Positions 442 through 9,392 of a stretch of 64,000 nt of DNA are shown here, in pieces; position 1 is the stretch's first letter, and every line of letters begins with the position of its first letter. The stretch comes from a virus: the IMG/VR virus record IMGVR_UViG_3300001450_010303, positions 1 to 64,000 of that record; one strand, 5' to 3'. Under the pieces are notes generated by a model. It saw only the letters and a list, made by a program, of their open reading frames with translations, had not been told where the DNA came from and ran no database searches. A program made the translations under genes and the position numbers.

Positions 442-607
442 CTTGGTCCGAAGAAATCACTACGGCGCACCGAGCAAAGGCCGCGGCCCAGTCGGCATCA
501 TTATCAGGCGCGCCCTATCACTACCGTCCGAATGGTGGATCGTGGAGTGGGCCGGGGATGGTCGCGAGACTATAAGATCAGAACACCTAAAAGTCGTTAG
601 CTCTTGA
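428..607 (+). CDS. small SH3/KOW-like protein (59 aa, not in ORF track)
   Basis: GTG start; VKVGNLVRR...GIII...VEW...SEHLKVVSS; TGA stop lies in the first TTGACA box of repeat R1. Confidence 0.7.
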   Translation: MKVGNLVRRNHYGAPSKGRGPVGIIIRRALSLPSEWWIVEWAGDGRETIRSEHLKVVSS

Positions 608-674
608 CATTCTCTTGACAACTTAAACCTTGACTTCTACCCTATTCGGTGTTATATTATAGGTATAGAAAGGG
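604..674 (+). promoter_or_regulatory. triple-TTGAC promoter element R1
   Basis: TTGACA 604, TTGACA 615, TTGACT 630, 17 bp spacer, TGn-TATATT 653, RBS GAAAGG. Confidence 0.85.
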
Positions 675-681
675 GCAAAAA

Positions 682-795
682 ATGCTTGAAAAACGAAACG
701 GAATGATGATCGCCACGATCATCGCAGACTTAACTTGCTGGACAGGGCTTATTGCCCTCGGCTTTCACTGGGCAGCATGCCCGCTTGGATGGTAG
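682..795 (+). CDS. small hydrophobic protein (37 aa)
   Basis: ATG directly after R1 and RBS; MLEKRNGMMIATIIADLTCWTGLIALGFHWAACPLGW. Confidence 0.6.
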   Translation: MLEKRNGMMIATIIADLTCWTGLIALGFHWAACPLGW

Positions 796-796
796 A

Positions 797-1156
797 ATGA
801 AAATAGAACTGACAGACAGTGAGATCGAGGTAGTGATGAAGGCTCTTGAACACTTCACCAGAGCCCCACATTCGATCCGCGAGGGTGTGTGCATCGACGA
901 GATCAATGAGATCGCAGATGACATTCGCGAACAGGACTGCCGCCGCGATGATGGATGGGGGATCGATGCTGAGATCAATGCGGAAACGCAGATGTTTAGT
1001 GTTGGTGTAGAGGCCCGCGAGAAGATGAAGGCGACAAGCCAAGCGGCCAGCCGACGTGCGTTAAAGTTTATATCTCCTGGAACACCGAAGAATCGATCCA
1101 AAAATCAGGACGTTGATGTATGGGCTCCACCACCCAATGATCCTGCAAAGTGGTAG
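797..1156 (+). CDS. hypothetical protein
   Basis: ORF 752..1156; ATG 797 follows the preceding stop by 1 nt. Confidence 0.65.
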   Translation: MKIELTDSEIEVVMKALEHFTRAPHSIREGVCIDEINEIADDIREQDCRRDDGWGIDAEINAETQMFSVGVEAREKMKATSQAASRRALKFISPGTPKNRSKNQDVDVWAPPPNDPAKW

Positions 1157-1260
1157 GTGACGAATAATGACGCTTCTAACTGTGCTTTCGATTCTTTGTG
1201 CCCCCGGCTCTGGTAGTGTGTTCGATCCAACCATTGAGCCACTCATAGCCCCACTCACGC

Positions 1261-1339
1261 TTGACATTCCCTTGACAACTTTGCCATTGACAAGGGGCTA
1301 AAAGCGGTTATATTATAGGTATAGAAAGGAAAGAAAACT
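1261..1339 (+). promoter_or_regulatory. triple-TTGAC promoter element R2
   Basis: TTGACA at 1261, 1272, 1287; TATATT 1309; TATAGGTATAGAAAGG. Confidence 0.85.
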
Positions 1340-2209
1340 ATGTCATACAACGGAACCGTTCGCTGCTCTTACTGCTACACTACTGGCCATAACAAGCGCA
1401 AGTGTTCTGACTATACCGCGATGGTGCTGCGCCGCTATAATGATAATCTGGGCTTTGCCGCGCAAGTTGATGAAGCCCGTCCTGACCACTACTTGCAGCA
1501 AGCCGAGCGGTACCGTCTTGTATACATGAAGCGCACCAAGATCGATCCCGCGACAGGCGAGAAGGTGAAGAACAAGACGGCGAAAGCCGAGCGCATGAAG
1601 AAAGTGACTTGCGGTTATTGCTCTCAGCGAGGTCACACCCGCCGAGTGTGTGGGGTTGTCGAGCGTGACAAGCTGGTATTCATCGAGGAATCCCGCCGTG
1701 TTCGTGCTGGTGTGCTTGAAGATGCCCGCGAGACTGGCATCGGTGTGGGTTCAATGATCCCTATCCGCACACGCGGATATAACGCTGATAATGAGTGGGG
1801 GACACACACAACACTCCGCTATGTTAAGAGTGTAGATTGGAACACGGTTACTGCTAACCGCGCAGGGTTGTGGGTATATCATGTTGATGCTCGGAAACTT
1901 GGTGCAGCCAATCAAGGCCGCTGGACCTCTCGCGACAAGATCGTGAGCCTACGGGAAAACTTTAACGAAGCATGTAGCCATGCAGAACTTCAGAACCATT
2001 CTGAGCCAACCGCTTCGCTTATCCCATCGCTCGATCCGGCCGCTGGCTGGCTGGACTGTGAGCCTTCTACTATCGACGTTGCGGCCCACTTCCCGACCAA
2101 GGGTAACAAGTATGAAAAGCAACGCGGCCACAACTATACGTGGCCACGCGGTGTGACGGCAGAAGTGATCCGCGATCTCGGACTTGAAGAACATTATGAA
2201 GTCTCTTGA
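1340..2209 (+). CDS. protein with two CCHC-type zinc-knuckle motifs
   Basis: CSYCYTTGHNKRKC and CGYCSQRGHTRRVC (Cx2Cx4Hx4C). Confidence 0.8.
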   Translation: MSYNGTVRCSYCYTTGHNKRKCSDYTAMVLRRYNDNLGFAAQVDEARPDHYLQQAERYRLVYMKRTKIDPATGEKVKNKTAKAERMKKVTCGYCSQRGHTRRVCGVVERDKLVFIEESRRVRAGVLEDARETGIGVGSMIPIRTRGYNADNEWGTHTTLRYVKSVDWNTVTANRAGLWVYHVDARKLGAANQGRWTSRDKIVSLRENFNEACSHAELQNHSEPTASLIPSLDPAAGWLDCEPSTIDVAAHFPTKGNKYEKQRGHNYTWPRGVTAEVIRDLGLEEHYEVS

Positions 2210-2285
2210 CATTTCCCTGACACCTCTCGCCTTGACTTATGGGCGAGAGCGGTTATATTATAAGGGTAAGAAAGAGAAAGAAAAG
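2206..2285 (+). promoter_or_regulatory. triple-TTGAC promoter element R3
   Basis: TTGACA 2206, CTGACA 2217, TTGACT 2232, TATATT 2254. Confidence 0.8.
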
Positions 2286-2308
2286 TTGTCATCCGATAAC
2301 AAAAACCT

Positions 2309-2412
2309 CTGACATTTACTTGACAACAAAAAACTTGACGTATAGCCCATTTGGTGTTATATTTATAGAGTAAGAACAAAAAGCCACCAACCCTCCCCGG
2401 AGAAAAACCACT
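2309..2412 (+). promoter_or_regulatory. triple-TTGAC promoter element R4
   Basis: CTGACA 2309, TTGACA 2320, TTGACG 2335, TGn-TATATT 2358; GGAG RBS before 2413. Confidence 0.8.
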
Positions 2413-7970: not shown

Positions 7971-8272
7971 TGAAAATATGGGTTGTAAGACAGACGTGTG
8001 CTCATTCCAATGACACTTATCTAAGCACACACATAACAGAAAAGGGCGCACTGATCACAGCTATCGAAGCGGTGCGGGCAGATATGGCTGATGGGCTGGA
8101 CGGTGACGAACTTGAAGATATGCGGCCGGGAATGCCTCACGACTTTGATGAAGATTTGATGAAGTATAGCAGCGATCACCTTCGCGGCATCGTTCAAGAT
8201 TGGTGGGAATATGCGTGGGAGATCGATGAATACCAACAGTATCAGATACACCAAACACAGGTGACAGCATGA
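7967..8272 (+). CDS. hypothetical acidic protein
   Basis: ORF track; ATGA overlap with the upstream gene. Confidence 0.7.
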   Translation: MMKIWVVRQTCAHSNDTYLSTHITEKGALITAIEAVRADMADGLDGDELEDMRPGMPHDFDEDLMKYSSDHLRGIVQDWWEYAWEIDEYQQYQIHQTQVTA

Positions 8273-8282
8273 AAGCAATCGC

Positions 8283-8362
8283 TTGACATTCACTTGACAA
8301 GAAAGGGCTTGCGTTTTGGCGCACCCTGTGGTATAATCTATATATAGAAAGGAGAGAAATCT
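8283..8362 (+). promoter_or_regulatory. triple-TTGAC promoter element R8
   Basis: TTGACA 8283, TTGACA 8294, TTGCGT 8309, TGn-TATAAT 8332. Confidence 0.85.
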
Positions 8363-8536
8363 ATGATCGAAGTCGGAAGCATGGTGACAAATGTGGGATT
8401 TATCCAAGGTCGCAATAACTCAAATCACGGGGTGGTTATCAGCTTGATGGCAGGCGGCAAGATTGCCCGTGTGTTCTGGGCTTCAACCCAAAAGAGCGGA
8501 TTTTGCTCCGTCGTAGACCTGCAAGTAATCGCTTGA
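8363..8536 (+). CDS. small SH3/KOW-like protein (57 aa, not in ORF track)
   Basis: MIEVGSMVT...GVVI...ARVFW...DLQVIA; AAGGAG RBS; stop in the first box of R9. Confidence 0.75.
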   Translation: MIEVGSMVTNVGFIQGRNNSNHGVVISLMAGGKIARVFWASTQKSGFCSVVDLQVIA

Positions 8537-8614
8537 CATTCACTTGACAACTTAGTTATTGACTTACCCCCGTTTTAGTGGTATAATGGTTATACCAAGT
8601 AAGGAGAAACCACC
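8533..8614 (+). promoter_or_regulatory. triple-TTGAC promoter element R9 with palindrome over -10
   Basis: TTGACA 8533, TTGACA 8544, TTGACT 8559, TATAAT 8582. Confidence 0.85.
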
Positions 8615-8890
8615 ATGGCTTCACAAATCGACACCGTTATACTTTTCGCAGACGCATGCGAAACCTTCACCACCGAGATCCTTCCGATGATCCAAGAGCA
8701 GTTTGAGCAGGACGGTATTCCTGACATGCCCGCCCGCCGCGAGGCATGGAATAACTGGGTTGATGGACTGAGCCAAGACGGGCAGATCAGCGAGTGGCAA
8801 GCAGACAACTGGGGACACCCAGACTGCAACGATGACAACCAACCGCGCACTTCAAGCTGGACCGGTAACGCTTGGCCGATCAACTACTAA
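8615..8890 (+). CDS. hypothetical protein
   Basis: After R9, AAGGAG RBS. Confidence 0.8.
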   Translation: MASQIDTVILFADACETFTTEILPMIQEQFEQDGIPDMPARREAWNNWVDGLSQDGQISEWQADNWGHPDCNDDNQPRTSSWTGNAWPINY

Positions 8891-8894
8891 TCTG

Positions 8895-8976
8895 CTGACA
8901 TTCACTTGACAACAAAAGCATTGACTTACCCCCGTTTTTCTGGTATAATGGTTATACCAAACAAGGAAAGAAGACC
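8895..8976 (+). promoter_or_regulatory. triple-TTGAC promoter element R10 with palindrome over -10
   Basis: CTGACA 8895, TTGACA 8906, TTGACT 8921, TATAAT 8944. Confidence 0.85.
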
Positions 8977-9306
8977 ATGACCAGCATCCAAACCAACTAC
9001 ATCGTGACCCTCACTTATATCCACTCAAGCGGCGGGTGGCACGGTGGTTATGATGCTGCCACTGATCGGCGCGAGGTGGCGCTTAACATCGCGGCAGACT
9101 GCGCGCACAATGCTAACCACATCGCGATCCGCAAGTACATCAACGGCGGCCAGCCGGAGATCATCAGCACTGCGCTCCACGCGCAGCAAGGTGAAGGCAC
9201 CGCGCAGGTCATCGCCTGGATCGACAGGATGAAGAACCTGGGCTGGTTCGACGATGCGAGGAAGGCGAAAGCCGCCCAAAAGTTTGCCGCCTGTGCTGCC
9301 GCGTAA
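8977..9306 (+). CDS. hypothetical protein
   Basis: After R10 with RBS. Confidence 0.75.
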   Translation: MTSIQTNYIVTLTYIHSSGGWHGGYDAATDRREVALNIAADCAHNANHIAIRKYINGGQPEIISTALHAQQGEGTAQVIAWIDRMKNLGWFDDARKAKAAQKFAACAAA

Positions 9307-9310
9307 GCCT

Positions 9311-9392
9311 CTGACATTCACTTGACAACTTAGTTGTTGACTTACCCCCACATTTCTGGTATAATGGTTATACCAAACAAGGAAAAAACACT
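9311..9392 (+). promoter_or_regulatory. triple-TTGAC promoter element R11 with palindrome over -10
   Basis: CTGACA 9311, TTGACA 9322, TTGACT 9337, TATAAT 9360. Confidence 0.85.

Follow-up and report, generated by a model that had tools for sequence, protein, structure and literature searches.

What does a short DNA element do that recurs eleven times within 9.3 kb among small phage genes, each time with three TTGAC boxes at fixed spacing? The question arises from the IMG/VR record IMGVR_UViG_3300001450_010303, a genome fragment of an uncultured marine T4-related myovirus, of which positions 1 to 64,000 (64,000 nucleotides, in the following the window) were analysed. In the reading favoured here, to which we assign a probability of roughly 70%, the elements are early promoters of the host RNA polymerase, a selected module of two boxes replaces the UP element upstream of each, and the elements double as patches for the exchange of gene cassettes. 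From the sequence we infer that the elements act as promoters and act early, that the boxes have an activating effect, and what kind of factor reads them.

The array was delimited by a search with a pattern of three TTGAC boxes, spaced at 0, +11 and +26 and with up to three mismatches tolerated. The search returned eleven matches, all on the plus strand (P1 to P11 in Table 1), at exactly the first-box coordinates listed in an earlier note on this DNA. In 100 dinucleotide-preserving shuffles the mean number of matches was 2.3 and the maximum 6, and none of the 100 reached 11. A position weight matrix derived from the eleven copies found no further one anywhere in the 105,274-bp record: those in the array scored 32-46 bits and the next site only 12.7, so the array is confined to positions 604-9341. 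A generic promoter scan of the first 14 kb gave, at a score of at least 10/12, the ten copies with an intact third box and two other sites. The entire array lies in a GC-rich block on the plus strand (1..9797, about 50% GC) that is truncated by the start of the contig, and since the contig start falls inside the block, eleven is probably a lower bound for the full genome. GC content is about 50% in window positions 1-10000 versus 36-44% in 10001-64000, with a drop to about 40% past about position 10,000, and the arrays of five complete relatives (G001, G002, G006, G007 and G008) have 47-57% GC versus 37-42% around them. Many related contigs (L002, L003, L005, L022, L023, L047, L070 and others) terminate within the promoter array, as the record start does; the repeats probably interrupt metagenome assembly.

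The third box takes the position of the -35 hexamer in each element. It reads TTGAC in 10 of the 11 copies and TTGCG in the remaining one (first box at 8283), so that the triple box at 0, +11 and +26 proposed earlier recurs in all eleven copies, with a decayed third box in one. The spacer to the -10 is 17 bp long in eight copies and 16 bp in three, the -10 is TATATT or TATAAT throughout, and the TG of an extended -10 (-15/-14) is found in 8/11, seven by consensus scan and P8 by reading of the sequence. Downstream follows a leader with a conserved start region, a purine-rich Shine-Dalgarno sequence of the GAAAGGA type and then, P3 excepted, the ATG. Alignment and consensus scan thus agree with the earlier description of a 16-17 bp spacer, TATATT or TATAAT and a purine-rich ribosome-binding leader. 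A sigma70-type promoter has a -35 near TTGACA and a -10 near TATAAT 16-18 bp downstream, and both are present; judged by sequence, the elements are near-consensus promoters of this type. They split a block of small, mostly unknown genes, as expected from the proposal that promoters divide the early region into cassettes. The number of genes suggested for each copy, one to five, does not hold for the copy at 2206, which is without an open reading frame (ORF) and stands in tandem with the promoter at 2309, 103 bp further downstream.

The two additional TTGACA boxes lie at about -50 and -61, with centres at about -47.5 and -58.5. No -10-like hexamer occurs 16-18 bp downstream of either, which rules out box 1 or box 2 as an alternative -35, and with it the idea that the extra boxes are alternative promoters. 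A search of positions 1-12,000 against Rfam gave no match to an RNA element. Among 359 unique -35/-10 anchor sites in related loci, 258 carried both extra boxes and 86 neither, and hardly any carried one, when each box was called with at most one mismatch at exactly -15 and -26 from the -35. The offsets from the -35 are -26/-15 in about 93% of sites and -25/-14 in the remainder, and the boxes are always in promoter orientation. The consensus of 168 non-redundant sites reads cTTGACATtc.CTTGACAActt....cTTGAC, followed by a 17-18 bp spacer and tg.TATAtT. Upstream of box 1 the information content is nil, and from box to box it is low; conservation sets in sharply, 1 nt before box 1, and the extra boxes are conserved as strongly as the -10. 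In alignments picked by the downstream gene alone they again stand out as islands of conservation, and boxes 1 and 2 are perfect even where the third box is a decayed TTGCR, as in P8 of the window; the TG, too, is absent from some of these promoters. This pattern of sequence conservation indicates that the two extra boxes are an upstream module selected as a pair.

The same design was found well beyond this record. An exact pattern with 20 specified bases matched 86 IMG/VR stretches, mostly from marine samples, and a looser scan of those stretches yielded 235 copies of identical layout, frequently with the same leader as well. Five complete relatives carry 11-15 copies each, on a single strand and in a single block of 9-20 kb, and a reversed-pattern control gave 0 matches in each of them. 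The three-box architecture is a clade-wide design and is not peculiar to the record. Searched with a pattern that included the -10, 596 Gb of prokaryote genomes contained it in two places only: a phage contig mis-binned in a Marinimicrobia metagenome-assembled genome, with three copies, and a lone site on an Omnitrophota contig. On these two matches, the possibility that the phage copied a promoter type of its host was rejected. A blastn search of one element against INPHARED returned nothing but chance matches to the -10 and the leader, and a full-text literature search found papers on promoter-early stem-loop (PeSL) cassettes and no description of promoters with three -35 boxes. The upstream module differs from every described promoter type.

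How the module relates to known upstream elements can be judged from sister phages. For this comparison, 74 loci were fetched by their VWA gene alone, disregarding the boxes. Three-box promoters were present in all loci with at least 75% VWA protein identity and in a few distant ones, and were absent from most loci at 40-72%. The sister promoters keep a strong core and differ in the upstream part. Their commonest form has two A-tracts 11 bp apart, centred at about -40.5 and -51; one lineage has instead a GGACA-N5-TGTCC palindrome centred near -62, and other loci show an 11/14 geometry or GTGACA boxes. Because the upstream forms differ among sisters, the -40 to -65 region is a module that changes with the lineage. 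UP elements, known from T4 early and rrn-type promoters, consist of A-tracts near -42 and -52, to which the alpha subunits of RNA polymerase bind with their C-terminal domains. The three-box elements resemble them in joining a near-consensus core to a two-part module about one helical turn apart between -40 and -61, and sister phages of the clade have the UP-type A-tract form upstream of the same genes. Unlike an UP element, however, the module has no A/T tracts between -40 and -60 and consists of two copies of the -35 hexamer, so reading of the minor groove by the alpha subunit does not fit. The TTGACA pair would take over the role of an UP element, and could add control.

The earlier note had further proposed that the elements act as handles for recombination. 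Across about 80 loci the gene order in the block is mosaic: a zinc-knuckle protein, MoxR, VWA and genes 20, 21 and 23 form a common core, and the small genes vary in presence and position. A comparison of cassette content with relatives therefore found the order variable, not fixed, and its breakpoints related to the repeats. The nearest relative, IMGVR_UViG_3300022902_000125, is about 90% identical to the window. It has the 64-aa gene before the VWA gene and not, as in the window, after it, lacks two genes and carries the P1 cassette between genes 16 and 17. It also contains a chimeric promoter: as far as the end of the -10 its sequence is identical to P5, and from the leader on, reaching into the gene, it is identical to P6. 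A second promoter, with the -35 and spacer of P5, lies 3' of the inserted gene. Such a junction is the footprint expected if the cassette was inserted by homologous exchange within the element. Counting homology blocks of at least 85% identity and at least 300 bp in 59 loci, 73 of 181 unique block ends fell inside elements, compared with the 10.9% expected from element coverage, with a sharp peak at the first base of box 1; these breakpoint statistics are not corrected for shared descent. Junctions with a promoter were touched in 35% of cases versus 19% for promoter-less ones (Fisher p = 2.7e-4, with shared ancestry uncorrected). The enrichment is real but moderate, and the elements are preferred, not exclusive, boundaries. 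The proposed handle is supported by the variable gene order, the concentration of breakpoints at the repeats and the chimeric promoters. The boxes are also closely tied to the genes before them: at 151 of 223 sites the TGA of a box is the stop codon of the upstream gene (box 1 at 114, box 2 at 33, box 3 at 4) and at 6 of the 11 elements in the window. With the upstream stop inside a box, gene end and promoter form one unit.

In function and context the closest match is the PeSL cassette, described from the T4-type phages RB49/phi1, T4/PST and KVP40/nt-1 (Arbiol et al. 2010, PMC2839356; Comeau et al. 2014, PMC4122927). PeSL mini-circles are inserted by homologous exchange within the element, and recombination of the T4 type needs just short patches of homology (PMC2839356). 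Both systems consist of a conserved element of about 100 bp that is built around a strong early promoter of the sigma70 type and recurs in many copies among the small ORFans of one block in a T4-related myovirus; the repetition of a strong sigma70-like promoter in a hyperplastic ORFan region is seen here with 11 copies in 9.3 kb, and with 11-15 in the relatives. In both, close relatives differ by insertions, deletions and moves of cassettes, with indels and replacements bounded by elements and with chimeric elements. PeSL cross-overs fall between the -10 and the start codon, and one such chimeric junction was found here. Upstream of the -35 the two differ, as the PeSL has an AT-rich stretch, a form present in the sister phages, where the three-box elements have two TTGACA boxes at fixed spacing. 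They differ also in the stem-loop terminator that defines the PeSL and that the three-box elements lack. Terminator-like hairpins numbered 15 versus 11.4 +/- 3.2 in shuffles, and thus are not enriched, and only two of them lie within elements (P3 and P7). Stems of at least 4 bp in the spacer occur at 23% of sites versus 16% of shuffles, suggesting that PeSL-like stem-loops are weakly enriched, if at all. The arrangement of small genes of unknown function in one array, with recombination targeted to conserved intergenic sites, also recalls integrons, but there is neither an integrase nor an attC-type site here and each cassette carries its own promoter. Presumably, cassette exchange runs via general homologous recombination.

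Could the repeats be something other than promoters, and what reads the extra boxes? The movement of cassettes and the junctions within elements would also be expected if the repeats were no transcription signals at all but the ends of mobile elements or the sites of a recombinase. Every copy, however, runs in the same direction as the genes and combines -35, spacer, -10, Shine-Dalgarno sequence and, P3 excepted, an ATG at fixed distance, and no recombinase gene was noticed in the block, of which only the larger proteins were scanned against family libraries, so that this explanation is hardly credible. As a reader of the extra TTGACA boxes, a stand-alone sigma70 region-4 protein of the phage was considered. 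The relatives encode such a protein of 82-90 aa, with a Cys-rich N terminus, a helix-turn-helix of the region 4.2 type, PF04545 scores of 30-41 bits, above the cut-off, and a recognition helix that resembles primary sigma factors (KQIExKAL). Yet the residues at the positions of R584 and E585, which contact the -35 in Escherichia coli sigma70, are F and A, and the protein is present in 7 of 9 complete array genomes (missing from G006 and G011 even at the syntenic locus) as well as in 4 of 5 array-free sister genomes. Its distribution does not track the arrays; it was rejected as the reader, and we regard the idea as very improbable. The gene sits between those of a ribbon-helix-helix (RHH)-like protein and a very acidic protein of 195-301 aa, in an operon 3' of a GMP-reductase-like gene (L099, L121; Table 1), and its product and a gp55-like protein encoded in the window may both belong to a split sigma factor. 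More generally, six array and four array-free genomes were assembled from fetched pieces and their roughly 2,400 ORFs clustered by BLASTP; no protein family occurred in 6/6 of the former and 0/4 of the latter. Six families reached 5/6 versus 0/4, namely a Dam-type methyltransferase, a 2157-aa protein and four small unknowns, none of which looks like a DNA-binding regulator. The methyltransferase is of the N6-adenine type (PF05869, E = 3.5e-33, in G002), and its distribution may reflect shared ancestry only. As no family tracks the boxes, a lineage-specific phage reader is not supported, and a host factor or RNA polymerase itself would be the more economical one. Outside the arrays, box pairs occurred only as scattered sites at chance level and in no conserved place.

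Among host factors, a response regulator of the OmpR/PhoB family could bind boxes 1 and 2 and make early transcription depend on a host signal, for instance phosphate or light. The sites of these regulators are direct hexamer repeats with an 11-bp period, occupied by tandem dimers, and the boxes, two hexamers separated by 5 bp, always paired and in one orientation, suit this geometry; they are 11 bp apart in 11/11 copies and in about 93% of clade sites. The minus strand of the pair reads TGTCA-N6-TGTCA, and TGTCA is the core of the pho-box half-site; the palindrome of the sister lineage near -62, with its GACA half-site, likewise looks like the site of a dimeric factor. On the other hand, the boxes agree with the -35 consensus down to the flanking C and share their form with box 3. 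Known pho boxes lie on the coding strand and take the place of the -35; here the TGTCA core is found on the other strand, and the -35 downstream of the pair is intact. Dependence of all early genes on a host signal would be costly to the phage, and most sister phages use unconditional A-tract elements in the same region. The 596 Gb of cellular genomes held no three-box host regulon, although the two-box pair alone was not searched for. This makes a response-regulator site unlikely, and we consider it equally doubtful that boxes 1 and 2 are operators of a phage repressor, for example the RHH-like protein, that shuts off early transcription when middle or late genes take over. A dedicated binder of that kind would be in keeping with the strict pairing and the conserved sequence, tandem subsites spaced by about one helical turn are common targets of RHH dimers, and the RHH-like gene lies beside the GMP-reductase gene in all four array genomes that were read at this locus (G001, G007, G006 and G011). 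The assignment to the RHH fold was made by eye, though, with no Pfam match, the clustering revealed no family that tracks box presence, and the extra box pair expected at an autoregulated gene has no conserved counterpart outside the arrays. Moreover, perfect boxes 1 and 2 at promoters with a decayed -35 and no TG fit activation better than repression.

According to the preferred reading, the housekeeping RNA polymerase of the host would use the eleven elements as early promoters of a marine T4-related myovirus of about 200 kb. The core would be that of an ordinary strong promoter: the -35 TTGAC and the -10, in most copies an extended one, stand 16-17 bp apart, and the short leader behind them contains a strong Shine-Dalgarno sequence. 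The box pair would stand in for the UP element as a device that recruits or controls RNA polymerase, and would be read in tandem by a sequence-specific DNA binder, encoded by the host or part of RNA polymerase and not a lineage-specific phage protein. Because elements of about 90 bp are repeated 11-15 times in one block, they would also serve as homology patches for the insertion, loss and movement of cassettes, as PeSLs do, and the TGA inside a box would supply the stop codon of the gene upstream. Several points weigh against this reading. Promoters also sit at operon borders, where selection tolerates breaks, and the breakpoint counts include loci related by shared descent, without correction. 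Small, fast-evolving readers, including ones that are phage-encoded or delivered with the virion, can escape BLASTP clustering based on crude ORF calls. Furthermore, the box centres do not coincide with those of the A-tracts in the sister phages, and the module would therefore have been replaced by region and not by position. A bolder version is more tentative: that the box pair is a novel, phage-private upstream promoter element that stands where the UP element would be and recruits host RNA polymerase by an undescribed contact, and that the 90-bp unit combines stop codon, promoter, ribosome-binding site and recombination site of a self-shuffling library of early genes. This contact could be a second interaction of the sigma region-4 type, or an adaptor from the host or the virion.

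Table 1. Coordinates of the three-box elements and of other features mentioned in the text. Positions refer to the window unless a contig is named.
Feature	Position	Strand	Description
P1	604..681	+	boxes at 604, 615 and 630; TATATT ends at 658; ATG at 682; heads 37-aa and 119-aa genes
P2	1261..1339	+	16-bp spacer, no TG; heads gene of 289-aa protein
P3	2206..2265	+	no ORF of its own; box-1 TGA is stop of 289-aa gene; tandem with P4
P4	2309..2412	+	long leader; heads MoxR-type AAA ATPase gene and three small genes
P5	4352..4432	+	heads metallopeptidase/VWA (DUF2201) protein gene and two small genes; box-1 TGA is stop of upstream 138-aa gene
P6	6307..6385	+	weakest match (TTTACA, CTGACA, TTGACA); heads 64-, 105- and 63-aa genes
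P7	7063..7142	+	heads 275- and 101-aa genes; small spacer hairpin at 7097-7110
P8	8283..8362	+	box 3 decayed to TTGCG, boxes 1 and 2 perfect; extended -10 TGGTATAAT; heads 57-aa gene
P9	8533..8614	+	TATAAT subtype; heads 91-aa gene; box-1 TGA is stop of upstream 57-aa gene
P10	8895..8976	+	TATAAT subtype; heads 109-aa gene, no homologue found in related loci
P11	9311..9392	+	TATAAT subtype; last of the array; heads 134-aa gene and subsequent genes
289-aa early protein	1340-2209		two CCHC zinc knuckles (CxxCxxxGHxxxxC)
Seven small paralogues	256-441, 428-607, 3498-3728, 3694-3936, 6118-6321, 6886-7077, 8363-8536		57-80 aa
Segment missing from nearest relative	15531-15984		about 93% identity on both flanks
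tmRNA	28285-28630		one-piece; Rfam RF00023, 118 bits
tRNA-Asn (GTT)	31915-31991
gp55-like protein	56643-57347
RHH-like/sigma-4/acidic operon	L099 744-2075	-
RHH-like/sigma-4/acidic operon	L101 1366-2293	+
RHH-like/sigma-4/acidic operon	L100 814-2054	-
RHH-like/sigma-4/acidic operon	L105 846-2420	+
Dam-type methyltransferase (example)	L227 18692-19186

P3 contains a stem at 2224-2249 with 9 bp (CTCTCGCC / GGCGAGAG) that encloses the -35 box directly after the 289-aa gene. In the relative L034 both arms are altered together (CTCTCACC / GGTGAG), and the tandem pair of P3 and P4 is kept in several relatives.

The cargo of the cassettes gave no evidence for the earlier suggestion of host-takeover or anti-defence genes: the only nameable products, from a family-library scan of the block that covered the larger proteins only, are the MoxR-ATPase/VWA pair and the zinc-knuckle protein. 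The latter, the 289-aa early protein downstream of P2, is conserved clade-wide, and its only family match is a weak one to a zinc finger. The seven small paralogues have a start of the MKVGDLV type and a common G-IV ... V-W ... L pattern; they are scattered in the array and variable in the relatives.

The record as a whole is 57% complete by the CheckV estimate and is a piece of a genome of about 195-205 kb; the complete relatives are contigs of 194-205 kb with a T4 gp23-type capsid gene. Almost all genes of the record are on one strand. They include those of a baseplate wedge protein, SbcC, a PhoH/PIN protein, a large sugar cluster and a DUF6267 protein, the last common in cyanophages and pelagiphages. 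Neither a megablast search with 12 kb nor a blastn search with one element revealed a cultured relative; the best protein matches, at about 30-40% identity, are to cyanophages, a pelagiphage, a Flavobacterium phage and a Microcystis phage. The window also encodes a one-piece tmRNA with the tag peptide ANNNNNFESVRLAA and a tRNA-Asn, and together these two could aid identification of the host. The segment missing from the nearest relative marks an indel that begins at a repeated MKLxLENW leader.

The early promoters of phages rank with the strongest found in nature, and on them depends who gains the upper hand in the opening minutes of an infection. In this clade of abundant ocean phages, the classical A-tract booster appears to have been swapped for two extra copies of the -35 box, set at fixed intervals. 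Should the boxes attract RNA polymerase by a new route, they would add an entry to the textbook list of promoter elements and provide a compact, strong and portable promoter part. The elements also show, at nucleotide resolution, the shuffling of small early genes in large marine phages, and they extend the PeSL idea beyond coliphages and vibriophages.

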